Shown here: piece by piece, positions 13,636-37,363 of the stretch
Numbering within the stretch: the stretch's first letter is position 1
How the letters are laid out: every line of letters begins with the position of its first letter
Assembly: GCA_047602265.1 (NCBI GenBank)
Contig: JASGHU010000001.1
Coordinates: 2,691,546-2,755,545, forward strand
DNA length: 64,000 nucleotides
Source of the DNA: Spongiibacteraceae bacterium
GTDB taxonomy: Bacteria > Pseudomonadota > Gammaproteobacteria > Pseudomonadales > CAMLJR01
Direction: 5' to 3'
The notes under the pieces: model-generated
Databases searched by the model: none
What the model was told of the DNA's origin: nothing
Seen by the model: only the letters and a program-made list of their open reading frames with translations
Translations under genes and position numbers: made by a program

Positions 13636-16842
<3,207 letters not shown>

Positions 16843-19803: not shown

Positions 19804-20013
19804 ATGGCCCGAAACCCTCTGGTTGAATTCGGCAAACGTGTCCGCGCGATACGTAAAGCGGCCGGCTTCTCCCAAGAAGCGTTGGCAGACTATGCCGATA
19901 TCGATCGCTCCTACCTCGGCGCGATTGAGCGTGGCGAGGTCAATCTCACCCTCATAAAAATCCATCAAATCGCCAAGGCGTTGCGTATCTCACCGAAAGA
20001 GTTTTTCTCCTAA
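19804..20013 (+). CDS. XRE-family helix-turn-helix transcriptional regulator (69 aa)
   Basis: FGKRVRAIRKAAGFSQEALADYADIDRSYLGAIERGEVNLTL is a canonical HTH_3/Cro-C1 motif. Confidence 0.8.
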   Translation: MARNPLVEFGKRVRAIRKAAGFSQEALADYADIDRSYLGAIERGEVNLTLIKIHQIAKALRISPKEFFS

Positions 20014-20089
20014 ATCAGCCCCGTCAGCGCACAGCGTTATTTTTGTGGTTATTTGATACAGTGCCTTTTTCAGGCCCCGGGATCGTCTC

Positions 20090-21088: not shown

Positions 21089-21118
21089 TTTTTTACGAAC
21101 ACTCAAATAATCGACGGC

Positions 21119-22207
21119 ATGAATATGAGTGAAGAGCTATTGGAAGGCGCTATCTGGTTGCCCGATTTTCCCTTTGAGGATTTGTGCGCAGTCAGCGAGT
21201 TACTGAAAACGGCGGATGTTTTCGTTCCGGGCTATATTCCTCCCGATCGCGGCGTCTACGATTTAGAAGAATTTCTTTATCGTCATATGATCGAGCAAGC
21301 AACCACCATTTTATTGCCCGATCGCAATATCGTTTCGAGAATCGCCCAGGTTGTTCAAGGCGAAGCAATGGATTCGCAGCGAAGGCTTGCGTGTGCGGTG
21401 TTGGCATTTGCTCAAGGTCTTGAGATCGACATCGAACCATCGATTGCTTATCACGAACTCGCGCATAAAAACGATAATGCGACGGCTCATATCGAACTCG
21501 GATGGTTTCGTCGCGGCGATGATTCCGTGTGCACACCCTGGCTCGATGCAGCGCTGGGGCGTAGCGATCGAGTACCACTTTCGCAAAATCCGGTATCGAG
21601 CGACTCTCTCGATTTAGCGCTGCCGTTAAAGCGTTGGCGGCGCAATTATATTGTCGCCCTAAAAATTGCCGCACTCGAATTGAGCGGCGCTCCCGCGTTA
21701 GAAAAAATGGTGAAATTGCTGGAATGGATGCGCGATGATTTTATTTTGGCGGGACCAGCGACGATGTTGGCAGCCGTGTATTTCGCGCCCATGTCGCCCC
21801 CGCGCAAGGGGCTGTTTAAACAACTGCGATCTTCCGATCGCGAACGTGCCATAGCAGGTGTGAGGAATGTGGCATGGGACATTACGCATTTGAGTGATTT
21901 TGTCGCTCGCGTTCAGAACGCATCCCATGACGAAGTACGTTATCTATTTGCCTCGTTCGATCATGGATTATGTACAGTCGCGAGGCTGCTGGTCTCGGAT
22001 AGTGAAAATATCGACGATTATTTGCTGCAGCAATTATCGCCGTGGTGGCCTGATAGCAATGTCGTCGTATTAGTCGAGCATATTGCGAGTGCGTTCAATA
22101 TTCAGCGGGATGCCGCATGGTTTCAGCGACAGCAATCCGATGTTAATAAAATCGATCAATTGATTGCCGAAGGGGAAGCTTTGATTCGCGAAACCACTTA
22201 CGCATAA
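21119..22207 (+). CDS. Hypothetical protein (362 aa)
   Basis: Long ORF with coding-like composition. No motif recognised. Confidence 0.45.
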   Translation: MNMSEELLEGAIWLPDFPFEDLCAVSELLKTADVFVPGYIPPDRGVYDLEEFLYRHMIEQATTILLPDRNIVSRIAQVVQGEAMDSQRRLACAVLAFAQGLEIDIEPSIAYHELAHKNDNATAHIELGWFRRGDDSVCTPWLDAALGRSDRVPLSQNPVSSDSLDLALPLKRWRRNYIVALKIAALELSGAPALEKMVKLLEWMRDDFILAGPATMLAAVYFAPMSPPRKGLFKQLRSSDRERAIAGVRNVAWDITHLSDFVARVQNASHDEVRYLFASFDHGLCTVARLLVSDSENIDDYLLQQLSPWWPDSNVVVLVEHIASAFNIQRDAAWFQRQQSDVNKIDQLIAEGEALIRETTYA

Positions 22208-22241
22208 AGGCAATTGAAATCGCGATAACATTCAATGAATG

Positions 22242-22751
22242 TTACGAACGTTGAATCGGCGTTGCATTCAACAATTGGTCGAGGCGACTTTCGACACGTT
22301 TTTTTAAAGAAGCATCCGCTTGAATGGCCTGCAAGAATCGCTGAGTAGCGCTGCCGAAATCTCTTATTAATACCGCCACACTGATCAACACTAAATCGCC
22401 GCCATCATGTTGGTGAGGACCGTTATCCACGTAGCCAAACTTTTTGGGCGCTGGCACTTTCTTGTGCAGATCTGCCAATGTTGCGAATGTATGGAGTACC
22501 GCGCAGCGCGCGGCGTACAGATCTTTCCCCACGTATTGGTAAGGCTGCTCATCCTCCGTTTTGAGGTAGGTATCCACCCATTCATAAAAATCATTCCGGG
22601 TTTGTCGATCGCGCTCAAGCGGTAGCGATAACCACGCGAACGTATCAATGCCGATATACACCATCGACAGCGCAGCAACCGTAGCGCCGACATCGTAGGC
22701 CGTGGAGATTTCGTTGACCAGATCCTGGATGGGTTTATAGCTCATCGTCAT
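22242..22751 (-). CDS. Hypothetical protein (start moved to the ATG after the GAGGGA RBS; the upstream extension overlaps regulatory repeats)
   Basis: ORF only. No motif recognised. Confidence 0.45.
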   Translation of the reverse strand: MTMSYKPIQDLVNEISTAYDVGATVAALSMVYIGIDTFAWLSLPLERDRQTRNDFYEWVDTYLKTEDEQPYQYVGKDLYAARCAVLHTFATLADLHKKVPAPKKFGYVDNGPHQHDGGDLVLISVAVLIRDFGSATQRFLQAIQADASLKKRVESRLDQLLNATPIQRS

Positions 22752-22776
22752 AACATCCCTCATGCACCTCTGGAAT

Positions 22777-22929
22777 ATCGTACGTTTAAAAATGGTACCG
22801 TAGGCAATCGGTGCCAAACGTACGATAATCCAACAAAGCGCTTAATCTGACCAATTAGATAAATTTTGGGAATAAAAAATGGATTATTTATATTCAATAA
22901 TTCAATTTTCTGGATCGTACGATCCAGAA
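22777..22929. promoter_or_regulatory. Divergent promoter region with three occurrences of an ATCGTACG core: inverted arms ATCGTACGTTT (22777-22787) and AAACGTACGAT (22816-22826), plus the perfect 22-bp palindrome TTCTGGATCGTACGATCCAGAA (22908-22929)
   Basis: Read directly from the sequence. The palindrome ends 18 nt before the sprT-like start. Confidence 0.5.
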
Positions 22930-22947: not shown

Positions 22948-23781
22948 ATGAAAAAACCAACCGAAGTTTTGTACGGTCGGTTTCAAGAGGCCTATGACTT
23001 CTTCAACGACCGTTTATTTGAAAACAAGCTACCCGCTTGCGTGATCACGTTTCAGCGTCAAAAGCGCATTATGGGGTACGTATCGCTGGAGCGCTGGATC
23101 AATCAGCAGCAGGAGTATACCCACGAGTTGGCGATTAACCCAGAATACTTCGCGAATTACCCCCTGGTCGAAATCTGCCAAACCCTCTGCCATGAAATGG
23201 TCCACATCTGGCAAGCCCAATTCGGCAATGCCGGCCGGCGCGGTTATCACAACCGGCAGTGGGCGAACAAAATGATGGTCATCGGCCTCATGCCTTCCAC
23301 GACGGGCGAGCCCGGCGGTGACATTGTCGGTGAGCATGTGGGGGATTACATTCTTAATGATGGGCCTTTCATCAGGGCTTTTAATGAGCTGGCCTCGTCG
23401 GGATTTCATCTGGCCTGGATGGACCGCTATCCCGTCGTGCGAGAGGAAACCACGACTGTCATTTATACTCAGTCAGGAAAACCCGTCGAGCTCGATACCA
23501 AGGCACCTGCAGCCGCCAGTATGTTGATGGAGCGGCGCTCGGAACATTCCACGACACAATTGCCGTATTCGTTTGAAGAGCTAGATGCGGCGTTTACCTC
23601 TGCTTTTACGCCGCAATTGCTGCCGCCTGCACAGGTGGGCAGTGTGCCCACCACACGACCAAAAATATCCAGCAACAAACACAAATACCGCTGTCCGAAA
23701 TGCCATCTGCAGCTATGGGGAAAACCCGAGCTTTACGTTATTTGTGGCGAGTGCAATGCCGCGCTGGTCGAAAGCGAATAA
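22948..23781 (+). CDS. SprT-like zinc metalloprotease domain protein with a C-terminal zinc ribbon
   Basis: N-terminal SprT-like region with HEMVH (HExxH). C-terminal CPKC...CGEC ribbon. Confidence 0.8.
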   Translation: MKKPTEVLYGRFQEAYDFFNDRLFENKLPACVITFQRQKRIMGYVSLERWINQQQEYTHELAINPEYFANYPLVEICQTLCHEMVHIWQAQFGNAGRRGYHNRQWANKMMVIGLMPSTTGEPGGDIVGEHVGDYILNDGPFIRAFNELASSGFHLAWMDRYPVVREETTTVIYTQSGKPVELDTKAPAAASMLMERRSEHSTTQLPYSFEELDAAFTSAFTPQLLPPAQVGSVPTTRPKISSNKHKYRCPKCHLQLWGKPELYVICGECNAALVESE

Positions 23782-23782
23782 C

Positions 23783-26700
23783 CTATGTGCCGAGAATTTC
23801 CCGTAATAGGTCTTGAAGGTCCAGCCGCTTGCCGTCGAATGAAAAGGTATAGCTCCCATTGAAATTGATGTGCGTCCACGCCACGGGTGAACAGTGTTTC
23901 ATTTCTTCAAGCTTTACCAATTGATTGGTGCGTTCGAAACCTTGAACCAACAGCGACAAAATGCTCGAATTGAAATAGATCACACAGTTCGCAATTAAGC
24001 GACTGCATTCGTACCACAGCGAAATTTCCGCATCGGAATTACCACGAAATTGACTGCCATTCACTTCTTCGATGCGACGTAACAGCGCATGGTAGGACTC
24101 ACCACGGTTCAATGCGCGTTGCACATAACCACGAACACTGCTGTCATCGATAAAATCCAACAGATAAATGCATTTGATTAGTCGATCGTATTCGGCCAGT
24201 GCTTTGAATGGATTACTTTTGGCTTTGAAACGCGACATTTTGCGCACGAGATTGGCTTGCGATACCTCCTGACTATGTAAGCTGACCATGACCTGCTGAA
24301 TGAATGCCCAATTTTTCTCAATCAGGTCGTAGTTGATGGGTTTCAGTAAGGTCACCTCGCAACCATTCTCACTCTCTGTGTAGCCGAATAGACTCGCCAG
24401 AATTTTGCCCGGCCGTTTATACCGGGGAGCAAACTCCCAGCCGTGACAGTCCAAGATGGCGAAATTAAATTGATTCGCGCCATGCGTATCGGTCGAGATC
24501 ACATCGGGTTTAATCTCGGACGTATTGTTATAGAGCACGTCAAATAAATAATGCGATTCATGCGTGTACGGTTTCATGATCTCGGCATTGACGGGCACAT
24601 GGTTGGCACACAACGACACGGCCGACAGGCCTTTACCGCGCCCGAAATATTTTGAGGAGTAATGGGTACTGATAGTGTTGTAGCGGCTTTCGAAACGCTG
24701 GCCGTCAAAGCTTGCGTGCAGCACATTTTCTTGAATGTTGTAGTACTTAAAGATTTCCAATTGGGAGATGGCGTTGCTGATGACATCGTTAGCGGCATGA
24801 ATGGTTTCACCGCGCAGGTGATTTTTTTCTGCTTGCCGCAACTCATCGTAGGGAAGATTGCAAAGCGTCGCCATATGATGCGTACCGTAGCGCGTGCCAT
24901 TGGCGACGATACAGGCAATGATGGCGTTCAAATTGGATGGCGGTTTGCGCAGGCGAATATGGGTCAGCTGGGATGAGAAGTTAAGATTTCTTTCCGCAAA
25001 GGCAATAATGTCGCCAATGTGAAGCTGCTTAATTTGACTGTAGAAATCCTCGGATTTATCAACCTCATCCTTGGCGCGACGTTTGATAGTCCATTTTATT
25101 TTCCCGTTATTTTCAGTAAAAATCACGGAAGAGTTTTCGCCCGCACCGAGACGTGCTCCCACAGCCTTTCTTTTCTTCTCCAGCACCGCTTTTTTCTCAG
25201 CGAGTATTTCATTGATTGGCCGCTTTAGTGTTATGTAATTGCTCATCGCGACGAGCTCAGGAACATCCTCAGCCAGTACAAAATCATCTTCGTACCACTT
25301 ATACGATAAGCTGTCCTCAACATAAAATTTCAAGTCTTCAAGCCGGTCCTTGATGCGGATATACATCAACACTTCGGCGCGGATGAGATTGACGCCGCCA
25401 TCGCTGTCATCGGCATCGAATAATAAATAGGGTTTCAACTGCGGTTTAATGAGGCGAGCATCGAAATTCTGCATCTTTCCCGACGTTATCATTTCCTCTT
25501 TGGAGAGACGAACCTGGCGCAACAGCGGTTGAGCTGATTCATCGCGGGAATCGAATGTATGGCAGAGAAATAATTTTCGCAGTATGGTTTTTATGCGGCT
25601 GTGTTTCGCCTCGTAAAATTCCCATTGAAACTCTTTGTGGTCGGTTTTTATGCCGGCGATAAACTTGCTGACGCCAGGCATTTGGTCCTTGGGTAGAATT
25701 TCATAAGCTTTTTTCTGGGCAACAGAAAAAGCTGTCCTCCCTTTAATTTTTCCATCGTAGAAAATATCGATTAGAGGGCTGGCTTTTTTATATTTCTCAT
25801 CCATGTTTTTGAGTTCATTAAATTGTTTGTCCTTGCCATAGATCTCGGCTTCGTCCTCCAATTTGCGCACATGATAGATAAACCCCTGAATCAAAATATC
25901 GCTGATTTGGAAATAGCGTTGATAGAGAAAGCAGGATAAATACAGCGCAAAAGCGCCTGCGGACAATCTGCGTAATCGTGAAATCGAGTAGTAGGTAACC
26001 AGATATGCAAAATAATCGATGTTCTTTTTGGAGAGGCCAAGCGCTTCTACAGAGGCGCAAATGTTCGGAAATACTTCGCTTATTTTCTCAAAGACCTCAA
26101 TTTCCGCATAAATTTCTTTTTTCTGAAAACTTTTTGGTAGCTTTTTTATTTGCGTAATCAGTGGCTTTTTTTCTTCGGCGTAGGCCATTTGCTTAAGGGT
26201 TTCTACATCGCTATCGCCCAAAAAGAATAATATTTTCTCTTCGAGGGCTCGTTCCTCACTTTGGAGCCCCGCGGAAATTATTTTTTGAAGCGTGCTATAC
26301 GCTGGAATAGCTACCTTTTTCTCTGCTAGGTGATGTATACAGCTATCAAACACCTCGCGTGGTTCGACAATCTGAGCAGAAAGGCGGCGAACGAAATCAG
26401 TAAGCTGATGCTTGGCATCATCATAAATTTCATGGCCGTAAAAACCCAAAATAGAGGCATAGATGCGAGATTTTTGGGTACTGCTCAATTCGGCATGGGT
26501 TAATTTCACCGGGATTTGATACTTATTGCGTATATAGACGAGGTCGGTTTTCACCTCCGCGACGGTTGGATTCAGAACTACCGGCTTATATTTGAAATAA
26601 CCCAGCAGCAGGATACGGTAGGCATTGGTAATAGCGTCATTACGAGGGGAGAAAAGTGCTCGTTCAGCGTCATCTAATTCGAAGAAGAACTCTCGTTCGG

Positions 26701-26788
26701 CATCGGTGAATCGCGGTACGCAATAGAGTTCTTCCACCTCTGAGTTAGTCAGTATCTCAATTCTTTTATCATTGTCTGCCATGGTCAT
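23783..26788 (-). CDS. tnpA: Tn3-family DDE transposase
   Basis: N-terminus MTMADNDKRIEILTNSEVEELYCVPRFTDAEREFFFELDD (DUF4158-type), ~1000 aa, C-terminal DDE_Tn3 region. More AT-rich than the flanks by eye. Confidence 0.9.
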   Translation of the reverse strand: MTMADNDKRIEILTNSEVEELYCVPRFTDAEREFFFELDDAERALFSPRNDAITNAYRILLLGYFKYKPVVLNPTVAEVKTDLVYIRNKYQIPVKLTHAELSSTQKSRIYASILGFYGHEIYDDAKHQLTDFVRRLSAQIVEPREVFDSCIHHLAEKKVAIPAYSTLQKIISAGLQSEERALEEKILFFLGDSDVETLKQMAYAEEKKPLITQIKKLPKSFQKKEIYAEIEVFEKISEVFPNICASVEALGLSKKNIDYFAYLVTYYSISRLRRLSAGAFALYLSCFLYQRYFQISDILIQGFIYHVRKLEDEAEIYGKDKQFNELKNMDEKYKKASPLIDIFYDGKIKGRTAFSVAQKKAYEILPKDQMPGVSKFIAGIKTDHKEFQWEFYEAKHSRIKTILRKLFLCHTFDSRDESAQPLLRQVRLSKEEMITSGKMQNFDARLIKPQLKPYLLFDADDSDGGVNLIRAEVLMYIRIKDRLEDLKFYVEDSLSYKWYEDDFVLAEDVPELVAMSNYITLKRPINEILAEKKAVLEKKRKAVGARLGAGENSSVIFTENNGKIKWTIKRRAKDEVDKSEDFYSQIKQLHIGDIIAFAERNLNFSSQLTHIRLRKPPSNLNAIIACIVANGTRYGTHHMATLCNLPYDELRQAEKNHLRGETIHAANDVISNAISQLEIFKYYNIQENVLHASFDGQRFESRYNTISTHYSSKYFGRGKGLSAVSLCANHVPVNAEIMKPYTHESHYLFDVLYNNTSEIKPDVISTDTHGANQFNFAILDCHGWEFAPRYKRPGKILASLFGYTESENGCEVTLLKPINYDLIEKNWAFIQQVMVSLHSQEVSQANLVRKMSRFKAKSNPFKALAEYDRLIKCIYLLDFIDDSSVRGYVQRALNRGESYHALLRRIEEVNGSQFRGNSDAEISLWYECSRLIANCVIYFNSSILSLLVQGFERTNQLVKLEEMKHCSPVAWTHINFNGSYTFSFDGKRLDLQDLLREILGT

Positions 26789-27171
26789 CCGTCCCAAACA
26801 AAAAGGCCGAATTTTAACCAGGGCATGATGACGGCCAGCGTGCATGGCGCACGAAAGTTGGGACGCAAAGGGGCTGAGGCTAGAGAAGGGTCGAAAATGA
26901 CAGTTTTGGGGCAAAAACGCTGCCGGGTTTTTGGTCCCCGAGCCTAGAGCCTAGCGGTCTGCAGGGGCGATGTGTAGGATTTGGCGGAAACTATCTGGAA
27001 CCCCCACTTCCAAAAAATTCTATTTAAATTTTCACAAATCAGTCGCGCTAAACCAATTGATGGCTATAGACGGTTGACGCAACCCATAGAAGAAAACGAT
27101 CTTAGCTTATATCGTTTTTCGAAATCTTAACGCTCAATTATTTGGCATCTTTTTGAATAGGGGTAGATATC

Positions 27172-28098
27172 ATGGCCGAATCTGAAGCGCGTCTCGCCTT
27201 AGGCGACGCTGCGGCTAGACAGCTTGCAAATGCAACGAAGACACGTCCGCAGCTTTCTACAATCTCACCGCGCTGGCTCGTGAATTTTCTGCAATGGCTA
27301 CCGGTCGAAGCGGGTATTTACCGCGTAAACAAAGTTAAAAATCCCCTCAACGTCACCGTTGCCTGCACGCAACGCGACGAGTCGGAATTGCCGCAAACAT
27401 TCGTCGACTACGAAGAAAATCCGCGCGAATATTTTTTGAATTCGGTCACCACCGTGCTCGATGTACATACCCGCGTTTCAGATCTCTACAGCAGTCCTCA
27501 CGATCAGATTAAAGAGCAATTGCGTCTGACGATCGAAACGATCAAAGAACGCCAGGAAAGCGAACTTATCAACAATCCTGAGTACGGTTTGCTTGCCAGT
27601 ATTGCCGACGAACAACGCATTCCGACACTAACCGGCGCTCCTACGCCTGATGATATGGATGACTTGATTTCGAAAGTCTGGAAAGAGCCAGCGTTTTTCC
27701 TCACTCATCCACTGGCTATTGCCGCTTTTGGTCGTGAGTGCACACGCCGCGGTGTGCCACCTCCCACTGTGAGCTTGTTCGGTTCGCAATTTTTAACATG
27801 GCGTGGACTACCGCTGGTGCCGTCGGATAAATTCCCGATTGAAGACGGGAAAACTAAAATTTTGTTGATGCGCGTTGGTGAAAAGCGCCAAGGCGTAGTT
27901 GGTTTATTTCAACCAGGCTTGGCAGGCGAGCAAAGCCCCGGTCTATCGGTACGCTTCATGGGCATCGGTCGCAATGCTATCGCCTCGTATTTAATTTCGC
28001 TGTATTGCTCGCTTGCTGTCCTGACCGAAGACGCTCTCGCAGTTCTCGAAGATGTTGAAGTCGGTAAATATCATGAATACCCCGATACCTACCGCTAA
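27172..28098 (+). CDS. Family 2A encapsulin nanocompartment shell protein (SrpI-like)
   Basis: ~300 aa with no cNMP-binding insertion. The N-terminal ARQLANATKTRPQLSTISPRWLVNFLQWLPVEAGIYRVNKV resembles, from memory, the family 2 shell N-terminus. It sits directly upstream of, and overlaps, a cysteine desulfurase with a long disordered N-terminus. Confidence 0.75.
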   Translation: MAESEARLALGDAAARQLANATKTRPQLSTISPRWLVNFLQWLPVEAGIYRVNKVKNPLNVTVACTQRDESELPQTFVDYEENPREYFLNSVTTVLDVHTRVSDLYSSPHDQIKEQLRLTIETIKERQESELINNPEYGLLASIADEQRIPTLTGAPTPDDMDDLISKVWKEPAFFLTHPLAIAAFGRECTRRGVPPPTVSLFGSQFLTWRGLPLVPSDKFPIEDGKTKILLMRVGEKRQGVVGLFQPGLAGEQSPGLSVRFMGIGRNAIASYLISLYCSLAVLTEDALAVLEDVEVGKYHEYPDTYR

Positions 28099-30049
28099 CA
28101 GTCAGGCGGCTGCGCCTGAAGATAGTATCGGTGCGTTGACGACACTCGTGCCAAATGGCTTGCCCGATGAAAATATTCTCAATCGCTTAGCGAATGAGTT
28201 TTTTTCTGCAATACCGGGCCTGGCCTCGTCGAGTAATCCAAGCGCTGCTGCCACTGCACCTGTGCCATCCGCTGCGCAGGCAGGCACAGTTGCGCCAACG
28301 ACATTTGAGCCGCAAGCGACTCCAAGTCCGCGCGGTTCAAGCGTGACATCGACAGGTAACGGTGCACCCGATATCGCTTTGCAATCGGCTGCAGGTACAG
28401 GAAAGCCGGGTAATGCAATGCTCGGTATTCCAGAGGTATTCGCTGCAGCATTGCCGGTTATCGACGCGCCTGCATCGACAGAAAAATTCAGCGCAGGCCT
28501 GCCAGTTTCTCCACCCTCTTCGCCATTTTATTTTTTGGGTGAATCGAGTGCCTATTCGCAAAGCGCCCCAATACCGTTACCTGAAGCATCATCGATTACC
28601 AACCACGATCGCGTGATTGCACAGACATTCGGCTTACCGGGAACCGAAGAGCTCAATGCATTGCTCTCCACGATCGAATACAAACCGACGGCTGAGCACA
28701 CGGCAAAAAACTCACATACGACAAATTCACAAACTGAAAACAATGGCGGTTGGTTTTATTTTGTCGACGGCCTACACGCACGCAACGAAACATCGAACTC
28801 ATTGCCGCTCAGTGCGCACCCTGCATTTGATGTCAACGCAGTACGTCGCGATTTTCCGATTTTGCAGGAGCGCGTTAATGGCCGTCCGCTGATTTGGTTC
28901 GATAATGCGGCGACTACCCACAAGCCCCAAGCTGTCATCGATCGCCTCGCCTATTTTTACGCACATGAAAATTCGAATATCCATCGCGCTGCGCATGAGC
29001 TTGCCGCGCGCGCCACTGATGCCTACGAAGCGGCGCGTAATAAAGTGGCGAGATTTATCGGCGCCAGCTCGGTCGAAGAAATTATTTTCGTGCGCGGCGC
29101 TACCGAGGCGATCAATCTCGTCGCAAAAACCTGGGGCGAACAACACATCCAGGCCGGCGATGAAATTATCGTATCCAACCTCGAACATCACGCGAACATC
29201 GTACCGTGGCAACAACTCGTAGCGAAAACGGGTGCGAAGATTCGTGTGATTCCCGTCGATAACGACGGTCAAATTATTCTCGAGGAATACCAACGTCTGC
29301 TAAATCCGAGAACGAAGCTGGTTGCAATCACGCAGGTATCGAATGCGCTCGGTACGGTTACACCAGTGAAAGAAATTATCGATGCAGCGCATCGCAACGG
29401 TTCGTGCGTTTTAGTCGACGGCGCCCAATCGGTATCGCACATGCGTGTGAACGTGCAGGCACTCGACGCTGACTTCTTCGTATTTTCAGGCCACAAGATT
29501 TTCGCCCCGACCGGAATCGGCGTTGTTTATGGCAAGAAATCAATTCTCGATACGATGCAGCCATGGCAAGGCGGTGGCAATATGATCGAGGATGTCACGT
29601 TCGAGCATACGCGTTATCAACCTGCGCCAGCACGTTTTGAAGCTGGAACCGGCAATATCGCCGATGCAGTGGGACTCGGTGCGGCGCTCGATTATGTCGA
29701 GCGTATCGGCATCGAAAATATTGCGCGTTACGAACACGACTTACTTGCCTACGCAACACATGGGTTGAAAACCGTACCCGGTTTACGTTTGATCGGCACA
29801 GCGAAAGATAAAGCCAGTGTCGCTTCATTCGTACTCGATGGGCACACAACAGAAGAAGTGGGCAAGGCACTCAATCGCGAAGGTATCGCCGTACGTTCAG
29901 GGCACCATTGCGCGCAGCCGATTTTGCGACGTTTTGGTGTTGAAGCGACCGTCCGCCCTTCATTCGCTTTTTACAATACCTGTCAGGAAATCGATGTGAT
30001 GATCGCTACGCTGCATCGATTGCAAGCGTCCTATAAAGCAGGAAAATAG
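28073..30049 (+). CDS. Encapsulin cargo cysteine desulfurase (SufS/CsdA-like class V aminotransferase) with a ~250-aa disordered N-terminal targeting domain
   Basis: P/A/S-rich N-terminus containing LNRLANEFFS (nt 28178-28207). A SufS-like core follows from ~28830 (FPILQERVNGRPLIWFDNAATT... SGHKIFAPTGIGVVYG... RSGHHCAQP). The start may be 28052 or 28073. Confidence 0.85.
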   Translation: MNTPIPTANSQAAAPEDSIGALTTLVPNGLPDENILNRLANEFFSAIPGLASSSNPSAAATAPVPSAAQAGTVAPTTFEPQATPSPRGSSVTSTGNGAPDIALQSAAGTGKPGNAMLGIPEVFAAALPVIDAPASTEKFSAGLPVSPPSSPFYFLGESSAYSQSAPIPLPEASSITNHDRVIAQTFGLPGTEELNALLSTIEYKPTAEHTAKNSHTTNSQTENNGGWFYFVDGLHARNETSNSLPLSAHPAFDVNAVRRDFPILQERVNGRPLIWFDNAATTHKPQAVIDRLAYFYAHENSNIHRAAHELAARATDAYEAARNKVARFIGASSVEEIIFVRGATEAINLVAKTWGEQHIQAGDEIIVSNLEHHANIVPWQQLVAKTGAKIRVIPVDNDGQIILEEYQRLLNPRTKLVAITQVSNALGTVTPVKEIIDAAHRNGSCVLVDGAQSVSHMRVNVQALDADFFVFSGHKIFAPTGIGVVYGKKSILDTMQPWQGGGNMIEDVTFEHTRYQPAPARFEAGTGNIADAVGLGAALDYVERIGIENIARYEHDLLAYATHGLKTVPGLRLIGTAKDKASVASFVLDGHTTEEVGKALNREGIAVRSGHHCAQPILRRFGVEATVRPSFAFYNTCQEIDVMIATLHRLQASYKAGK

Positions 30050-30060
30050 CTATTAAAAAA

Positions 30061-30077
30061 GGCCGCATGTTGCGGCC
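30061..30077 (-). terminator. Hairpin GGCCGCA-TGT-TGCGGCC flanked by an A6 run (T-run on the minus strand). Terminator for cysA, possibly bidirectional.
   Basis: Read directly, between convergent genes. Confidence 0.6.
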
Positions 30078-30096
30078 TTGATTCTGCTATTACTTA

Positions 30097-31164
30097 TCAG
30101 TCATTCGTCACTTGATAAATGCGCGGATTGACAAGACGTATATAAACCTCATCGCCCGTCTGTACCTGCAATGCCTGAAATTCACGGCGAGAAATTTCCA
30201 CCTCGATCGATTCTTCGCGATCGTGATCGAGCACATCGAGCTCCAATTTAAATACCGAACCCGCGTTATGCACATGACGAATGCGCGCTGCCGGCAAATG
30301 CGGTTCGGCTTCGCGCGTTAAAAGCACATCGTGCGGGCGCACATACGCCGCGACTTGTTCGCGCGGCTCGGTACCGACAGGTGCTTCAACGCGCCAGCCA
30401 TCGATATCGAGATAACCGTGATCGAGGCGGCCGTGAAAAATATTCACATCACCGAGGAAGCGTGACACGAACGGACTGCGCGGATGCTCGTACACTTCTT
30501 CGGGTGTGCCGACCTGCTCGACCACGCCTTTATTCATCACCACGATGCGGCTCGATACTTCCATCGCCTCTTCCTGATCGTGCGTCACGAAAATACTGGT
30601 GACGTGCAATTCATCGTGCAGGCGACGCAACCAACGCCGTAATTCTTTGCGCACATTCGCATCGAGCGCGCCGAAAGGTTCGTCGAGCAGCAATACTTTC
30701 GGTTCAACCGCGAGTGCACGAGCGAGCGCAATCCGTTGGCGCTGACCGCCAGATAATTGATCGGGAAAACGATCGGCGAGCCAATCGAGTTGTACCAGCT
30801 TCAACAAATCGAAAACCTTCTTCTTGATTTGCGCTTCGCTCGGACGCTCCGGGCGTTTCTTCACACGCAGACCAAATGCAATGTTGTCGAACACGGTCAT
30901 GTGGCGAAACAGCGCGTAATGCTGAAACACGAAACCGATTTCGCGCTCGCGCACATGCGCGCTGGTTTGATCGACACCATTGAGTAGCACGCGACCTGAA
31001 TCGGGCTGTTCAAGCCCCGCGATCACGCGCAGCAACGAAGTCTTTCCGCAACCGGACGGGCCGAGCAGTGCGATAAGTTCGCCTTCGGGAATTTCCAGCG
31101 TGACATTATTCAGCGCGACAAAGTCGCCGAATTTTTTGTTGATGTTTTCTACTTTGATACTCAT
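30097..31164 (-). CDS. cysA: Sulfate/thiosulfate ABC transporter ATP-binding protein
   Basis: Walker [10 protein letters not shown], signature LSGGQRQR, Walker B LLLDEP, and a C-terminal TOBE-like domain. Confidence 0.9.
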
Positions 31165-31215
31165 ATCGGAAAATCCACTGAAATCGAATTCGATTTACTC
31201 GTTTGCACGTTCAGC

Positions 31216-32091
31216 TTACTGGTTCGCACTCACCGCTTTTGCTGCCTTTCGATCCTGCTCTTGCTTCCATTCGAAAATGCTTTTGAAGATCAATGTCGCC
31301 ACCGCCAACAACGCCAGCAGCGAAGCGACCGCGAACGAGGCCGCGAAGTTGTATTCGTTGTAGAGAATTTCCACGTGCAACGGCAGCGTATTGGTGAGCC
31401 CGCGAATATGACCGGATACCACCGACACCGCGCCGAACTCACCCATCGCACGCGCATTACAAAGAATCACGCCGTACAACAATGCCCACTTGATATTCGG
31501 CAGCGTCACTTTGAAAAACATTTGCCAACCGCTGGCGCCGAGCGAAAGCGCGGCCTCTTCTTCATCGCGCCCCTGCTCCTGCATCAGTGGAATCAATTCG
31601 CGCGCAACGAAAGGAAATGTCACAAAAATTGTCGCCAGCACCAATCCGGGGACGGCGAATAAAATTTTAATATCGTGCTCGCTGAGCCACGGCCCCAGCC
31701 AACCCTGACTGCCAAACACCAACACGTAAATCAAACCGGCGATAACAGGCGAAACCGAAAACGGCAGATCGATCAATGTCAGCAAGACATTCTTGCCGAT
31801 GAAATCGAAGCGCGCGATGACCCACGCAGCTGCAACACCGAATACCGTATTGAGTGGAACTGCAATCGCGGCAACGATCAGCGTCAATTTAATCGCCGCT
31901 AAGGTGTTGGGCTCGGTCAGCGCAGCGAAATAGACATCGACACCTTTGCGCAAGCCTTCGACGATCACCGTCAGCAGCGGCAATATCAAAAATAGTGCGA
32001 TCACGACCAGGGCCGAGCCGGTCAGTAACCAGCGTACCCAATCGATGCTCTGCCGCGGTTTTACGTAAGTCGCTTCGACAATATGACTCAT
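31216..32091 (-). CDS. cysW: Sulfate ABC transporter permease CysW
   Basis: Six-TM BPD permease with EAA-type loop [21 protein letters not shown]. The ATG lies 2 nt after the cysT stop. Confidence 0.85.
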
Positions 32092-32093
32092 GT

Positions 32094-32924
32094 TCACAGC
32101 GCTCCCGCGCGACGACGCGTCCACGCTTGCAACACATTGATCGCGAGCAGCAGGATGAAAGAAATGATCAACATGCCCATGCCGATCACCGTGGCACCGA
32201 CATAATCGTATTGTTCGAGTTTGGTCATGATGAGCAGCGGCACCACTTCCGAAACGAGCGGACGGTTACCTGCAATAAAAATCACCGAGCCGTATTCACC
32301 GATGCCGCGCGCAAATGCGAGTGCAAATCCCGTGAGCAGTGCGGGTAAAATATTCGGAAAAATAATTTTCTGAAAAACCTGCCAGCGCGATGCACCGAGA
32401 CTCGACGCCGCTTCTTCTTCGGCAGCGTCAAGATCTTCGAGCACGGGCTGCACCGTGCGCACCACGAATGGCAGACCGATAAATATCAGCGCGACCGTGA
32501 TACCCGTTGGCGTAAACGCCACCTGATAGCCGAGCGGTTCGAGATATTGACCGATCCAACCGTTCTTCGCGTAGATCGCCGTCAACACGATACCCGCGAC
32601 AGCGGTCGGCAACGCAAACGGCAAATCGATCAACGCATCGAACAGGCGTTTGAATGGCAATGGATAACGCACGAGCACCCACGCCAGCAGCAACCCCAAT
32701 GCAACATTGATCGAGGCCGCCAACAGCGATGTGGTTAAACTGACGCGAAACGAAGCGAGCACACGCGGGCTGGTCAGCAACGCCCACCACTGCGCCGGAC
32801 CATAACCCAGCGATTTCAACAGCAATGCTCCCAGCGGAATTAACACCAACAAGCTGAGATACAGCACCGTGAAGCCGAGTGCAGGCCGAAAGCCCGGCAG
32901 TAGTGAATGTTTGACCAGTGGCAT
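32094..32924 (-). CDS. cysT: Sulfate ABC transporter permease CysT (CysU)
   Basis: Permease with [21 protein letters not shown]. Paired with cysW and cysA. Confidence 0.85.
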
Positions 32925-33184
32925 TTATTAACTCGCTTCTGCTTTAGTTTTTTACTTCAAATCAACCGTGTTACTTCAGATAAATCTGACGGAGATGGCC
33001 GGCGCAATCGGTACCGCTGGAAGCTGCCGCAACCTGAATCGAACCGACATCGAAGGTAAGTGCGTCAAATAATTTCAGCGAACTTAATATGCGGAAAATG
33101 ATCTCGGGCAACCCGGTCGATCTAATAGCTTTGTTTGTGAGATATCGCATCGGCAGTCCGGTAGCGTGAATAGACGAAAGCGGA

Positions 33185-33364
33185 TTAGGTCAGTCTGATT
33201 TTGCGTTTGCTTTCGATTTGAGTGACACGGCCGTCGTGAACGGTTATCTCAACCGAGCCAAAACGAAGGTTGGCGAGCGCACGCGAAATTTCCTCTAGCA
33301 CTCGGCGATCGACCGTCGTGCCATCGGTATTGGAGAGAGGGTTCTCGTTGTCGTTTTCCGACAT
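33185..33364 (-). CDS. yezD: YezD-family (DUF2292) small protein, 59 aa. Absent from the supplied ORF track because it is under 60 aa.
   Basis: Manual translation: MSENDNENPLSNTDGTTVDRRVLEEISRALANLRFGSVEITVHDGRVTQIESKRKIRLT. The ...L.FGSV.I.VHDGRV.QIE... core is the family signature, and the family is typically linked to sulfate transport genes. Confidence 0.6.
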   Translation of the reverse strand: MSENDNENPLSNTDGTTVDRRVLEEISRALANLRFGSVEITVHDGRVTQIESKRKIRLT

Positions 33365-33660: not shown

Positions 33661-33806
33661 ATGTGCATACTTTGCTTGGAAGGCTGTAGAGCGGACATAA
33701 AAAACCTTTTTATCTAAAAAATGTGCGTACTTTACTTGGAACCGGAAAATCTAAATCTATAAAAATCAATGATTTAGAAAATGGAAAATGTGCACACTTT
33801 GCTTGG
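33661..33806 (+). repeat. Three direct copies of a 19-bp motif ATGTGC(A/G)(T/C)ACTTT(G/A)CTTGG at 33661, 33721 and 33788
   Basis: Read directly. Spacings are 60 and 67 bp. The repeats lie immediately upstream of, or overlapping, the recombinase start. Confidence 0.75.
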
Positions 33807-34782
33807 TCGTCCAGCCTGGCCTTTTATGTCCTCGAATTTGACGATTTCCAACTCGACCGCCTTGATTGAATCGCCGATCGATAATCCCGCGCTAACTGAT
33901 AATCCAGCGGCTATGTACCTGGCGACTTTGGGCTCACAACAAAGTCGACGCGTCATGCAATCGCGGCTCAATCGCTTTGCGGGATTGTTGAAGCTCGATG
34001 ATTGGCGCCAAATTCCCTGGCGCGAATTCGATCGTCCATGGCTGTTGTTGGCTAAAGAAGCTTTGGTTGTCGATCAGCGTTCGCCGGATACGGTGAATGC
34101 CATGCTGTCGATGCTCAAAGGCGTCGCCTTGCAAGCCTGGGAATTAAAACTCATCAACGATCACACCTATCTACGCATTAAAAACACCAAAGCCATCCGC
34201 GGTCAGCGTGTACCCAAGCGGCGCTGGCTGGATAAAGGCGACATCGTCAAATTACTCGATCAATGTTTAAAAGATGATCGTTTACAAGGCTTACGCGATG
34301 CCGCGTTGCTCGCATTGCTTTATGGCTGCGGCTTGCGTCGCTCGGAGGTTGTCGGTATTGATCTGACGCATATCGATGAAAAAGAACGTGCGATTCGAAT
34401 TCTCGGTAAAGGTAATAAAGAAAGAATTGTGTATCCACCTGGACGCGCGTGGGAAATGATGAAGGAGTGGATAAAAGAAGGGCGCGGCGATGATGAAGGC
34501 CCCCTGCTCTGTCGTATTCGTAAAGGCGGCGTGGTGACACTGGAGCGACTCACCGATCAGGCCGTGTATTACGTTATTCAACGTTTAATTTTGCAGACGG
34601 GTGTCGATAGTTTTTCGCCGCACGATTTGCGTGGCTCGTTTATTTCTTATCTGCTCGACAATGGCGAAGATATTAAAACCGTTGCGGATATTGTTGGCCA
34701 CGCCGATGTGCGCACAACGGCTGGTTATGATCGGCGTGGTGAAGCGCGAAAAAAGGCAGCTAACCGGTCGATTGATTTATAA
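33781..34782 (+). CDS. Tyrosine recombinase/integrase, XerC/D-like (start 33781 or 33826)
   Basis: LRDAALLALLYGCGLRRSEV..., ILGKGNKERIVY, HDLRGSFISYLL and GHADVRTTAGYD give the R-K-HxxR-H-Y catalytic pattern. Confidence 0.85.
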   Translation: MENVHTLLGRPAWPFMSSNLTISNSTALIESPIDNPALTDNPAAMYLATLGSQQSRRVMQSRLNRFAGLLKLDDWRQIPWREFDRPWLLLAKEALVVDQRSPDTVNAMLSMLKGVALQAWELKLINDHTYLRIKNTKAIRGQRVPKRRWLDKGDIVKLLDQCLKDDRLQGLRDAALLALLYGCGLRRSEVVGIDLTHIDEKERAIRILGKGNKERIVYPPGRAWEMMKEWIKEGRGDDEGPLLCRIRKGGVVTLERLTDQAVYYVIQRLILQTGVDSFSPHDLRGSFISYLLDNGEDIKTVADIVGHADVRTTAGYDRRGEARKKAANRSIDL

Positions 34783-34814: not shown

Positions 34815-35585
34815 TCAAGTTTTGGATTCATCGCTTTCTCTAAGCAAATATGTATCCATGATCCAGCCATTTTTTTCACGCGCATTTCTTCGCGCGTGCT
34901 CGATATTTTCGGCAACGTCCTTCAGTTTGCCAGACACTAAAATTTCGTCGGGCGTGCCGATATAAGCTCCCCAGTAAATATCCATGTCCTGATTGTCGAT
35001 GGCCTTGAATGCCATTTCTGCGTCAAGCATGACAACTGTCGTATCCGCATTGGCGGATAATCCGTTAGCAAGTTTTCTACCCGTAGTAATTTCCACCGAA
35101 CGACCAATGCGATTGAGCGGAATTTTATGGCGAGCGGTCAACGCCTGTACGCTAGTGATACCGGGGATGACTTCAAACTCGAATACGGCGCGACCGCTAT
35201 CGAGAATATCGCCAAGAATACGAATCGTGCTGTCGTACAACGAAGGGTCACCCCACACGAGAAACGCGCCGCACTCGCCATCTTCCAATTCATCGGTGAT
35301 TAACCGCTCGTAAACATCCTGCTTTTCGCGATTAAGATCATTAACACTGGCTTGATAATCCGCGACTCCACGTACACGCTCAGGAGTGACTGCTTCGGCG
35401 AAGCGATAATTTTTTGTATCGATGTATCTCTCGCAAATTTCGCGGCGAAGCTCGATAAGCTTGTGCTTGGATTCGCCTTTATCGAGAATAAAAAACACAT
35501 CGACTTTATTAAGTGCTTTCACCGCTTGAATCGTTACGTATTCGGGATCGCCCGCACCGATGCCAATCACCAGGATATTTTTCAT
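34815..35585 (-). CDS. cobF: Precorrin-6A synthase (deacetylating)
   Basis: [37 protein letters not shown]... is a TP-methylase fold of CobF length and pattern. ATGA overlap with the upstream gene. Confidence 0.8.
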   Translation of the reverse strand: MKNILVIGIGAGDPEYVTIQAVKALNKVDVFFILDKGESKHKLIELRREICERYIDTKNYRFAEAVTPERVRGVADYQASVNDLNREKQDVYERLITDELEDGECGAFLVWGDPSLYDSTIRILGDILDSGRAVFEFEVIPGITSVQALTARHKIPLNRIGRSVEITTGRKLANGLSANADTTVVMLDAEMAFKAIDNQDMDIYWGAYIGTPDEILVSGKLKDVAENIEHARRNAREKNGWIMDTYLLRESDESKT

Positions 35586-37363
35586 GATTTCTTCCCATAC
35601 CAACGCGGCGTATACACCCATTGCGCATTTTTCTTATCACCACGCATAAAACGTGTAGTGGTCGATGAACCGATAATCACCAAGGTACGCATATCGACTT
35701 GTTCGGAACGCAAATCAGCCAATGTCATCGTCGTCAATGCTTCGGCGGGACGGCCAATATCACGACCGAGCACGACGACGGTATCGGCACGGCGATGTCG
35801 GGCAACAATTTCGAGTGTGCGTGTCAATTGCCAAGGACGCGCTTTCGAAATTGGATTGTAAAACGCCAGCACAAAATCAGCCGCAGCAGCATGATCCAGT
35901 CGTTTCTCAATGATTTCCCACGGCTTGAGATTATCCGACAGCGACATCACGCAAAAATCATGACCTAGTGGTGCACCAGCGCGCGCAGCCGTCGCCAAGG
36001 CGGCGGAAACGCCAGGAAATATTTGCAGATCGACAGCATGCCAATCGCTATTATCGGATTCATGCAACGCTTCGAGCACAGCCGCCGCCATCGCAAAAAC
36101 ACCTGGATCACCCGAAGAAACCACAACAACACGCCGACCCTGTGCCGCCAATTCAAATGCGTGACGGGCGCGCTGCATTTCTTCACGGTTATCGGTGCAA
36201 TGCACGAGTTGATCGTCGCGAAACGGGCCTACCATCTTCACGTAGGTTTCATAACCCAGAATATCTTCGGCTTGTTGCAGCGCAATTTTTGCGGCGGGCA
36301 CCATAAACTCCGCTGCACCGGGACCGAGACCAACAACCGTTAACGAACCCCGGGCTTGACCGATCGCTAATGGATCAATCGGCGTATCGGCAACATGTAG
36401 CCTCACACGACCTAACGCATTTTGCCTGGCGACAATTTGTTCGGCGACCATTTTCTTGGCAACCGTTTTCTTAGTGACAACAGAAGGCAATGATTGAAGA
36501 TCTGCAACAAACCGAAGTGGCACGTTGAATTCATCTGCCACGTATTGCAATTGCAAATTTGAAATCGCCGATATGGGAGCAGCTATGCACGCCAGTGACA
36601 ATGGCGAAATGCTCGCTGCTTCCAACTCGTTGTGCACAGCAGCGATAAGATCTTCATGGCCTGAATTTTTTTCATCGACAGCCGCGATAACCGAACGTGG
36701 ATGAATCAATAATTCATTCACAGTTTCCGCACTCGTATTCGCAGTGACACGAATAATATGTTGTGCCGTACTATCCAATACTAAATTGGCATCACCGAGC
36801 CAATCGGCATTGCCTTCAATGCGAATCGTATTCCCGCCCAATAAGTCGGAGACAAATCGCTTACCCTGTTCGATATCGGCCAGGACATATCCGGGCGGCG
36901 GATTTAGCAGACAAGTACCAAAGCGTAACTCACCGCTCGTGGTAATCGCTGCCGATACCTGCAATGCCGCCGCAATATCGCGCGCCATCACATTGACACC
37001 TGACAACCCGCCAAGCAGTGGCACCACAGCACTGCCATCTTCCGCAACAGCCAACACCGATGGTTCCGCACCTTTCAATGCCAGCACGGGTGCCAAAGTA
37101 CGAATAACGATTCCTGCGGAACACAGCGCGATGAGTGCGGTATTACTCTGATATAAATCGCGCAGCGTTGCACCAAAATCCTGGTAAAACCGATCCGCAA
37201 ATTCGACGCGCGCCTGCAAACCATAAATCAACGCCGCCGGATACAGCGTTTTCATTTTTCTTGCGGTTTGCGCGCTGCCATTACCCAACATCACGATGGC
37301 AATGTTTTTATTCGGGATCGATTTAGTCCTATTCGGGTTATTAGTAGAGCTCATCCCTGCCAT
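35582..37363 (-). CDS. cobJ: Fusion of a CbiG-like domain with precorrin-3B C17-methyltransferase (CobJ). Start at 37363 or 37354.
   Basis: The C-terminal ~250 aa are a TP-methylase ([34 protein letters not shown]). The N-terminal ~330 aa are CbiG-like. Confidence 0.8.

Follow-up and report, generated by a model that had tools for sequence, protein, structure and literature searches.

A probable Family 2A desulfurase encapsulin gene pair beside a Tn3-family transposon end in a Spongiibacteraceae bacterium

The overlapping gene pair described here very probably (we put the probability at about 0.93) encodes a Family 2A desulfurase encapsulin, present in the window – the whole 64,000-nucleotide stretch of Spongiibacteraceae DNA that was analysed – as a promoter, shell and cargo module only (27057-30049), a Tn3-family end standing where every close relative has rhodanese, CysK-like, serine acetyltransferase and XRE genes. 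A shell and cargo pair of this kind is already known. The system is not novel, because counterparts from Synechococcus, Acinetobacter baumannii and Mycobacterium smegmatis are already characterised and both proteins are correctly named in NCBI; definition of the family dates from 2021, and structures of shell and cargo, together with a sulfur-storage function, appeared between 2021 and 2024 (PMC8049743, PMC10836720, PMC11659603). The module and its surroundings comprise the following features.

23783-26788, minus strand: Tn3-family transposase gene; the reading frame reaches 26914 from an upstream TTG
26979-27005, minus strand: Tn3-family terminal inverted repeat GGGGTTCCAGATAGTTTCCGCCAAAT, outer end at 27004/27005
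27057-27103, plus strand: candidate promoter/operator block TTGATGGCTATAGACGGTTGACG, conserved across species
27172-28098, plus strand: gene for the predicted Family 2A encapsulin shell protein, 308 aa, HK97-type, without a cNMP domain
28073-30049, plus strand: gene for the predicted Family 2A cargo cysteine desulfurase, overlapping the shell gene by 26 nt
30059-30079, no strand assigned: GC-rich hairpin separating the convergent stop codons of cysA and the cargo gene
30097-33364, minus strand: cysA, cysW and cysT with a small DUF2292 reading frame; sulfate ABC transporter, convergent with the operon and outside it

In profile searches the shell reading frame scores 539 bits against NCBIfam NF041162 (E=2e-162, cutoff 380) and 349 bits against Pfam PF19307 (E=1e-104), while a search of the 308-aa protein for the cNMP-binding domain PF00027 gave no match at E<=0.01; this is the SrpI-type Family 2A shell of ~300 aa without a cNMP domain that the sequence-only reading had proposed. 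An entry with 100% identity is on record at NCBI: P0121, 'family 2A encapsulin nanocompartment shell protein [Spongiibacteraceae bacterium]'. The alignment with the Acinetobacter shell 8T6R, a cryo-EM structure, runs from one end of the protein to the other (581 bits, ~85% identity), that with SrpI (6X8M, 509 bits) also spans the full length, and the solved structures 8WOL and 9KSL match as well. We infer the HK97 fold from this full-length identity to solved shells, because the AlphaFold2 model of the shell itself – computed from a shallow alignment of 27 sequences, none below 84% identity – has a pLDDT of 33. Judged by sequence, the shell gene product belongs to the Family 2A encapsulins of HK97 type, and nothing contradicts that assignment.

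The cargo reading frame spans 28052-30049 on the plus strand and offers two starts: the first ATG gives 665 aa and a 47-nt overlap with the shell gene, the ATG at 28073 gives 658 aa and an overlap of 26 nt. An overlap of 26-47 nt had been suggested; the overlap is real, but its length is 26 nt and the start at 28052 falls away. The true start is 28073, because the protein is 100% identical to NCBI P0001, the 658-aa form, because the 26-nt overlap recurs in relatives (L001, L083, L085 and L087), and because the N-terminus so defined, MxxPxPTxN, is conserved among homologues. This conserved N-terminus is dual-coded with the C-terminus of the shell. Against the encapsulin-cargo model NF041166 the protein scores 931 bits (E=5e-280, cutoff 800), so that the profile check suggested at the outset places shell and cargo alike above the cutoffs of their Family 2A models, and likewise above those of Pfam PF19307 (shell) and PF00266 (cargo). 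Scores against TIGR01979 (SufS) and PF00266 are 569 (cutoff 475) and 495 bits, and that against the SufS equivalog NF006791 is 507, under the cutoff of 661. Among solved structures the catalytic domain is nearest to 8KG1 (635 bits), the encapsulin cargo desulfurase of M. smegmatis. The PLP lysine (K475, in SGHK) and the catalytic cysteine (C613, in SGHHCAQP) align with FSGHK and GHHCA of E. coli SufS and are invariant in a 64-sequence alignment; by these residues the catalytic machinery, PLP lysine and persulfide-forming cysteine alike, is intact.

A critical question is whether the two genes could belong to something other than a Family 2A encapsulin. Encapsulin shells share the HK97 fold, PF19307 searches need phage matches filtered out, and two tyrosine recombinases and a Tn3 transposase lie at 17 to 35 kb of the window: the shell might accordingly be the HK97-type major capsid protein of a phage or prophage in a region rich in mobile elements, with an unrelated desulfurase beside it. 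This is effectively refuted. The Family 2A equivalog cutoff is exceeded, as is that of the dedicated cargo model; the shell shares ~85% identity with a solved encapsulin shell; terminase, portal and protease reading frames were sought nearby and none was found; and the pair recurs with its 26-nt overlap in more than 80 genomes. A Family 2B system has just as negligible a claim. NF041163 does return a score of 426, above its cutoff of 400, but only positions 211-449 of the 450 in that profile, its C-terminal half, are matched, the shell protein, at 308 aa, lacks a PF00027 match, and the 2A model scores higher (539). Scarcely less improbable is a housekeeping SufS, serving Fe-S cluster biogenesis outside any shell and carrying a low-complexity extension. 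The TIGR01979 score and ~50% identity to E. coli SufS are what such an enzyme would give, but this one falls under the NF006791 cutoff while passing that of NF041166, has no adjacent sufBCDE genes, carries published loading motifs in its extension, and is encoded by a gene that overlaps the shell gene.

The Family 2A reading draws further support from the cargo's N-terminal domain. Its ~250 aa comprise 55% P+A+S+T+G, as against 33% in the catalytic domain, and in the AlphaFold2 model pLDDT lies below 50 at residues 1-27, 50-159, 161-190 and 202-249, in line with the sequence-only reading, which had described a SufS-like enzyme with a long, P/A/S-rich disordered N-terminus. The domain has diverged far faster than the catalytic domain (39-74% versus 80-97% identity), yet discrete islands are kept.

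28157-28219, plus strand: putative cargo-loading motif 1, GLPDENILNRLANEFFSAIPG (aa 29-49), which contains LNRLANEFFS
28424-28456, plus strand: conserved island GIPEVFAAALP (aa 118-128), consensus GVPEAYAA.LP, 80-99% conserved in 118 homologues
28502-28555, plus strand: putative cargo-loading motif 2, PVSPPSSPFYFLGESSAY (aa 144-161), consensus PVSPPGSPYYFLGEAS.Y in 118 homologues
28610-28666, plus strand: conserved island RVIAQTFGLPGTEELNALL (aa 180-198), consensus RVVAQSFGLPG..EL.ALL
28745-28771, plus strand: conserved island GGWFYFVDG (aa 225-233), consensus G.FYFLD

Motif 1 is the best conserved island of the domain among the 118 homologues. LNRLANEFFS is encoded at 28178-28207 (aa 36-45), exactly where it had been placed, and matches LARLANEFFS, the cargo-loading motif to which it had been likened and which Nichols et al. 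2021 give in just this form (PMC8049743). Two helices are predicted by AlphaFold2, one at aa 33-45 (pLDDT 63-71, surroundings below 50) and one at aa 191-199 (pLDDT ~66), and they fall at the two best-scoring motif islands. SPFYFLGES and GGWFYFVDG had been put forward as possible additional shell-binding motifs. Both are conserved – Y229 and F230 of the second are invariant in the 64-sequence alignment – but SPFYFLGES (28520-28546; SSPFYFLGES is aa 149-158) is not new: it is the counterpart of the published AASPYYFLDG, by itself insufficient for loading (PMC8049743). Several short loading motifs have already been reported and tested in other desulfurase encapsulins (PMC11659603 among them). 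The gain here is comparative: for the beta/gammaproteobacterial clade, the loading domain of the cargo now has a clean map of seven motif islands.

How such a system would operate, from assembly and cargo loading to the storage of sulfur and induction when sulfur runs short, can be sketched from work on Synechococcus, Acinetobacter and Mycobacterium. Homology suggests a T=1 shell of ~24 nm built of 60 copies of the 308-aa protein; such assembly (~22-24 nm, 60-mer) has been shown for orthologues (PMC10836720, PMC11659603). A dimer of the cysteine desulfurase would be tethered inside through short hydrophobic motifs strung along the ~250-aa disordered domain – the LNRLANEFFS helix, SPFYFLGE, GIPEVFAAALP, FGLPG..EL..LL and WFYFVD – which are presumed to bind to non-polar patches on the inside of the shell. 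Conversion of L-cysteine to L-alanine by the PLP enzyme would leave sulfur to build up within the shell, protected there in elemental form or as polysulfide, and the compartment may thus serve under sulfur limitation as a sulfur store, possibly also as a cysteine-detoxifying device. Direct demonstrations of encapsulation through the N-terminal domain, and of sulfur deposition inside the shell, are confined to the systems of Synechococcus, Acinetobacter and M. smegmatis (PMC8049743, PMC10836720, PMC11659603).

The nearest of these is the desulfurase encapsulin of A. baumannii 118362 (8T6R; Benisch et al. 2024, PMC10836720), likewise from a gammaproteobacterium. End-to-end identity between the two Family 2A shells is ~85%, and the A. 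baumannii cargo is likewise of SufS type, with a P/G/S-rich disordered loading domain of ~225-250 aa and several short motifs; a 1.78 A structure, functional data, sulfur storage and induction by sulfur starvation are reported there. Its operon is rhodanese-SAT-Enc-CD, whereas the window has only Enc-CD, beside a Tn3-family end; the window's closest relatives add XRE/HTH_31 and CysK-like genes, outside the four operon components named in the available text. SrpI/CyD of Synechococcus elongatus PCC 7942 (6X8M/6X8T; Nichols et al. 2021, PMC8049743) has LARLANEFFS and AASPYYFLDG where the window has LNRLANEFFS and SSPFYFLGES, but SrpI is cyanobacterial and the window cargo carries at least five further islands typical of the beta/gammaproteobacterial clade. 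The Mmp1/Enc-CD system of M. smegmatis (8WOL, 8WON, 8KG1; Tang et al. 2024, PMC11659603) also depends for loading on several motifs in a disordered N-terminal stretch, none sufficient singly, though that stretch, at 155 aa, is the shorter one and the motifs were derived from mycobacterial sequences. With the type II cysteine desulfurase SufS/CsdB of E. coli (1JF9, 6NDN) the cargo has the PLP fold and active-site motifs in common over 400 aligned residues; SufS, however, has no N-terminal loading domain and partners SufE/SufBCD, and the window cargo lies under the SufS equivalog cutoff. Two general remarks of the sequence-only reading do not survive these comparisons. The family was said to be rarely annotated correctly, which is out of date given dedicated NCBIfam models and the correct NCBI names of P0121 and P0001. 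It was also said to be little studied in proteobacteria, which is wrong: they are the largest host group, with 813 of 1281 Family 2A desulfurase systems (PMC8346489), and the A. baumannii system has been studied by experiment.

Upstream of the shell gene, the block at 27057-27103 (core GCTATAGC) is a candidate promoter by virtue of its conservation across species. It consists of a near-palindrome, GCTATAGA, at 27063-27070, a -35-like TTGACG at 27074-27079, an 18-nt spacer and a -10-like GATCTT at 27098-27103. A sigma-70 consensus scan upstream of the shell gene found no promoter, and a sigma-54 reading of the block was rejected, the spacing from GG to TTG being two bases too long and the GC at -12 absent; nor were RNA elements found upstream at Rfam gathering thresholds, the window having only two cobalamin riboswitches, both elsewhere. 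Across loci the consensus is TTGaTGGCTATAGCatGTTGA-N17/18-GAnACT, located 82-165 nt upstream of the shell ATG, and the window keeps it with only 1-2 changes. A second comparative gain is the co-occurrence of this promoter/operator element with a regulator gene: the block is present in 44 of the 46 loci with an XRE/HTH_31 gene upstream of the shell and in none of the 32 without one. Other matches to the consensus in 2.4 Mb all have three mismatches, bar one perfect copy in L081.

It is conceivable, though we hold the idea only tentatively and rate it somewhat below even odds, that TTGATGGCTATAGC..GTTGA, whose centre lies ~43 nt before the predicted transcription start, is the operator of the small XRE/HTH_31 protein that is encoded just upstream of the shell elsewhere; its gene precedes the shell in roughly half of the sampled beta/gammaproteobacterial operons. 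Our search of the literature found no description of a regulatory layer of this kind. If the operator reading is true then the window holds a natural 'orphan operator', the Tn3-family element having taken the regulator together with the rhodanese and cysteine-synthesis genes and spared the promoter, and shell and cargo would be constitutive or silenced, uncoupled from the proposed rhodanese-based remobilisation of sulfur.

The absence of upstream partners sets the locus apart. A rhodanese gene stands directly upstream of the shell in 70 of 71 comparable loci (those whose upstream sequence extends to 3.2 kb or more, the window included); the sole exception is the window, throughout the 64 kb of which tblastn at E<=10 found no rhodanese. 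In relatives the rhodanese is usually accompanied by a serine acetyltransferase and often by an XRE regulator, and the order in the four closest is sigma54 activator-rhodanese-PALP-SAT-HTH-Enc-CD. In L087 the position of the sigma54 activator is held by an end-cut gene without a Pfam record. Nucleotide homology to the closest relative, L001, is confined to 27057-30028 and so begins exactly at the block; the end of the Tn3-family repeat, at 27004/5, is 52 nt before it. Accessory-gene loss through insertion of the transposon or an associated rearrangement is the most likely explanation. Rhodanese and its companions are accessory rather than family-defining, because only ~50% of all desulfurase encapsulin operons carry a rhodanese; the two-gene Enc-CD operon is a recognised functional type. 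Accessory genes or a second complete operon may sit elsewhere on the 3.54-Mb contig, of which 64 kb was covered.

The repeat block has been conserved in three related elements (L093, L088 and L089), where it lies upstream of tnpA. Searches for a second copy of GGGGTTCCAGATAGTTTCCGCCAAAT in the window and for a repeat pair in related loci found neither. For an element end at 26939 (GGGGACC...) no partner repeat was found either, and alignment with related elements gave 26979-27005 instead. The transposase scores 619 bits against NF033527 (cutoff 500) and also matches PF01526 and PF13700; the convergent SprT-like gene at 22948-23781 adjoins tnpA in related elements too. A plasmid database search with the transposase region gave nothing better than weak matches, at 65% and covering 9% of the query. 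A small XRE reading frame at 19804-20013 was considered as the displaced regulator of the operon and rejected: it is 40-52% identical to encapsulin-linked HTH proteins, where shell and catalytic domain are 97% identical to those of L001, and it adjoins a recombinase gene.

It could be argued that what is left is a decaying or silent remnant following transposon-associated loss of rhodanese, SAT and XRE. The window is, after all, the only one among the 71 loci without upstream accessory genes, the repeat ends close to the promoter block, and the XRE gene that accompanies that block elsewhere is missing; if its product is an activator then the promoter would be off, and loss of XRE and accessory genes could mean altered expression in this host, or none. 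We nonetheless regard decay as unlikely. Both reading frames are full length and without frameshifts, motifs and catalytic residues are all intact, the promoter-like block is retained, and two-gene Enc-CD operons, with rhodanese in only about half of all operons, are reckoned functional. Moreover, at a nucleotide identity to L001 of only 79.5%, shell and catalytic domain each retain 97% at the protein level, a sign of continued purifying selection. The Family 2A locus would thus be a natural variant that lost regulator and accessory genes at a transposon end while its shell and cargo module stayed under selection, and it could help to show whether such a system is of use only with rhodanese.

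Downstream, the convergent sulfate transporter genes score 397 (TIGR00968, cutoff 343), 416 (TIGR02140, cutoff 329) and 396 bits (TIGR02139, cutoff 246), and the DUF2292 reading frame 61 bits against PF10055. Conserved linkage to sulfate transport was rejected, cysTW(A) lying within 9 kb of the shell in just 4 of the 80 relatives. With cysTWA next to it here, a connection of the operon with sulfur starvation, as in the Synechococcus system, is plausible. The hairpin at 30059-30079, picked up in a terminator scan, has a 9-bp stem and a T-run on the minus strand.

The encapsulin shell and cargo pair is real, was rightly interpreted by the sequence-only reading, and is already known; the remaining points of interest are an apparent transposon-associated truncation and an undescribed link between an XRE gene and a putative operator block. 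The listing of open reading frames confirmed that the pair comprises two overlapping ORFs:

27172-28098, + strand: shell ORF, 308 aa
28052-30049, + strand: cargo ORF, 665 aa counted from the first ATG

The shell protein matches the SrpI-like family (PF19307, 349 bits in a Pfam profile search), and profile checks against the family 2A models exceeded both cutoffs – the NCBIfam equivalog for the shell (NF041162, 539 bits; cutoff 380) and the cargo-specific model (NF041166, 931 bits; cutoff 800). A Family 2B model also matches the shell (426 bits; cutoff 400), covering only the C-terminal half of its profile; because the match is so confined, and because a profile search found no cNMP-binding domain in the protein, the shell is assigned to 2A, as had been claimed. 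Among solved structures, the Family 2A shell of Acinetobacter baumannii (8T6R) aligns with the protein from end to end (581 bits, ~85% identity); further matches are SrpI (6X8M/6X8T, 509 bits) and three mycobacterial shells, 9KSL, 8WOL and 8WON. The predicted HK97 fold is assigned by homology to these solved shells; AlphaFold2, given a shallow alignment, returned a pLDDT of 33.

The description of the cargo as a SufS-like cysteine desulfurase held equally well: the protein lies above the cutoff of the SufS subfamily model and, at 507 bits, under that of the housekeeping SufS equivalog (661). The solved structure nearest to its catalytic domain (residues ~251-658) is 8KG1 (635 bits), the N-terminally truncated cargo desulfurase of an M. 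smegmatis encapsulin (Tang et al. 2024, PMC11659603). The PLP lysine K475 (SGHK) and persulfide cysteine C613 (GHHCA) align with their E. coli SufS counterparts, and both are unchanged throughout 64 homologues. The NCBI entry for the cargo (P0001) is 658 aa long, which places the start at 28073. The genes thus overlap by 26 nt, as they also do in the four closest related loci (L001, L083, L085 and L087), or by 47 nt if the start at 28052 is used, the range originally proposed. The cargo N-terminus, MxxPxPTxN, is kept across 118 homologues; at 28073-28098, however, cargo codons 1-9 (MNTPIPTAN) occupy the same nucleotides as the final eight codons of the shell gene (HEYPDTYR) and its stop, in a different frame. 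Apparent conservation here may reflect dual coding, and because of this confounding the first N-terminal island should not, as it stands, be taken for a shell-binding motif.

The N-terminal extension is, as originally described, ~250 aa long, P/A/S-rich and disordered. Residues 1-~250 contain 55% P/A/S/T/G (33% in the catalytic domain) and no cysteine; in an AlphaFold2 model built with 64 homologues, pLDDT is below 50 at residues 1-27, 50-159, 161-190 and 202-249, whereas most of the catalytic domain is modelled at moderate to high confidence, with means over 10-residue blocks lying mostly at 70-96. Two short helices are predicted, at residues 33-45 over the LNRLANEFF motif (pLDDT 63-71) and at residues 191-199 (EELNALL, ~66). 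Identity to relatives is 39-74% in this domain against 80-97% in the catalytic domain, and among the 118 homologues its conservation is concentrated in islands:

28178-28207, + strand: encodes LNRLANEFFS, within the island at residues 29-49
28520-28546, + strand: encodes SPFYFLGES, within the island at residues 144-161
28745-28771, + strand: encodes GGWFYFVDG, the conserved island at residues 225-233
residues 29-49: island GLPDE..LNRLANEFFSAIPG
residues 98-100: island APD
residues 118-128: island GIPEVFAAALP
residues 144-161: island PVSPPSSPFYFLGESSAY
residues 180-198: island RVIAQTFGLPGTEELNALL

LNRLANEFFS lies exactly where it was reported, and LARLANEFFS was correctly given as the loading motif, since Nichols et al. 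2021 (PMC8049743) print it alongside AASPYYFLDG, which alone gave no cargo loading. SPFYFLGES and GGWFYFVDG, suggested as additional shell-binding motifs, are conserved; SPFYFLGES, however, corresponds to the second motif of Nichols et al., and extra binding islands have already been proposed in the literature. Benisch et al. 2024 (PMC10836720) describe five partly conserved cargo motifs and see discontiguous densities over non-polar patches, both at the three-fold pores and at the A-domains; Tang et al. 2024 (PMC11659603) found that several motifs are needed, single ones being insufficient.

By analogy with characterised orthologues, sixty shell subunits would form a T=1 compartment in which the multivalent disordered domain tethers desulfurase dimers; pores would admit cysteine, to be desulfurised inside, and the sulfur would build up as protected elemental sulfur. 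In A. baumannii (PMC10836720), expression rises ~10-fold under sulfur limitation. A gammaproteobacterial system has thus received detailed study, and Proteobacteria are the largest host group, with 813 of 1281 Family 2A desulfurase operons (PMC8346489): the family can hardly be called little studied there. Nor is it rarely annotated correctly, given that NCBI holds both proteins at 100% identity, on a 3.54-Mb contig of a Spongiibacteraceae MAG, as 'family 2A encapsulin nanocompartment shell protein' and '...cargo protein cysteine desulfurase'.

The surroundings of the pair are less usual. Our comparison set comprised 80 related loci from species-representative genomes and five found by exact protein match, the upstream count being restricted to the 71 loci in which 3.2 kb or more lies 5′ of the shell gene. 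A rhodanese gene lies directly 5′ of the shell gene in 70 of these; the sole exception is the window.

Genes upstream of the shell gene in 71 loci (SAT, serine acetyltransferase; PALP, CysK-like; HTH, small regulator)
Rhodanese-SAT-HTH: 27
Rhodanese-SAT: 25
Rhodanese-PALP-SAT-HTH: 9
Rhodanese-HTH: 6
Rhodanese-PALP-SAT: 2
Rhodanese only: 1
None of these: 1 (the window)

Across the whole 64 kb of the window, a tblastn search (E<=10) gave no match to rhodanese, SAT or CysK-like proteins. All four closest relatives (shells 96-97% identical) carry rhodanese, PALP, SAT, HTH_31, shell and cargo genes, two unrelated genes separating rhodanese from PALP in L085. A sigma54 activator gene (371-373 aa) directly 5′ of rhodanese in three of them (L001 4719-5840, L083 4571-5692, L085 1980-3095) suggests that the accessory genes may be under sigma-54 control; in L087 its position is taken by an end-cut gene without a Pfam record. 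The window and L001 are homologous at the nucleotide level only over 27057-30028 (79.5%), and on the left the module is adjoined by a full-length Tn3-family transposase (NF033527, 619 bits):

22948-26914: Tn3-family element, transposase and convergent SprT-like gene
26979-27005, - strand: terminal repeat GGGGTTCCAGATAGTTTCCGCCAAAT, outer end 27004/27005
27057-27103: conserved block TTGATGGCTATAGACGGTTGACG-N18-GATCTT, at the left edge of the module

The repeat was revealed by aligning the transposase 5′ flank with three related metagenome elements (L088, L089, L093); the SprT-like gene is a passenger conserved among such elements. The window holds no second copy of the repeat, so the element's other end was not located. 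We infer that the upstream genes were lost or split off when a transposon inserted, or through a deletion or rearrangement linked to it; since the visible sequence spans only 64 kb, they could persist elsewhere in the genome.

The block has the consensus TTGaTGGCTATAGCatGTTGA, then GAnACT after 17-18 nt, and lies 82-165 nt 5′ of the shell ATG in relatives including L001 (8988-9045), L083, L085, L087 and ~40 other loci; an 8-bp palindromic core, GCTATAGC, sits just 5′ of a TTGA resembling a -35 box. The block occurs in 44 of the 46 loci with an XRE/HTH_31 gene immediately 5′ of the shell gene – small, and between the SAT and shell genes – and in none of 32 loci without that gene; the window is the sole locus with the block yet without the HTH gene. 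Across 2.4 Mb, both strands, other matches were chance ones with three mismatches, except a perfect copy in L081 (Ca. Accumulibacter affinis). There (L081 5973-8000), ~1.7 kb of fragmented DDE-transposase-like ORFs lie between that copy and the shell gene, a second, independent mobile-element disruption of the same intergenic region. Two readings of the co-occurrence stand on an equal footing: loci containing the HTH gene may need a separate promoter for shell and cargo, or the palindrome may serve as operator for the XRE protein. The literature searched contained no description of an XRE-family regulator tied to a desulfurase encapsulin.

Just 3′ of the cargo stop, a GC-rich hairpin precedes genes convergent to the cargo:

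30059-30079: GC-rich hairpin
30097-33364, - strand: small DUF2292 ORF, upstream of cysT, then cysT, cysW and cysA

The cysTWA neighbours fit a sulfur-acquisition theme, but this arrangement is not conserved across such systems: cysTW(A) occurs within 9 kb of the shell gene in only 4 of 80 relatives. The cysTWA genes lack an adjacent gene for a sulfate-binding protein (sbp/cysP), and the ~260-nt DUF2292-cysT gap holds no ORF of at least 60 aa. Three direct copies of the 19-nt ATGTGCAYACTTTRCTTGG (33661-33806, spacing 60 and 67 nt) lie just 5′ of, and overlap, the start of a tyrosine recombinase ORF (33781-34782); they may serve as arm sites for the recombinase or as iterons. That ORF and 17242-22817 form a mobile-element-like patch between an AcrB-type efflux gene (13657-16842) and cobF (34815-35621), containing an Xre/MbcA-type antitoxin-like ORF, a helicase, an XRE HTH (19804-20013) and two tyrosine recombinases; ORFs 21119-22207 and 22242-22817 had no family match, and neither a tRNA gene nor a flanking direct repeat was found around it. 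Two cobalamin riboswitches (RF00174), at 40186-40415 (- strand, 99 bits) and 43945-44184 (+ strand, 111 bits), lie among cobalamin biosynthesis genes.
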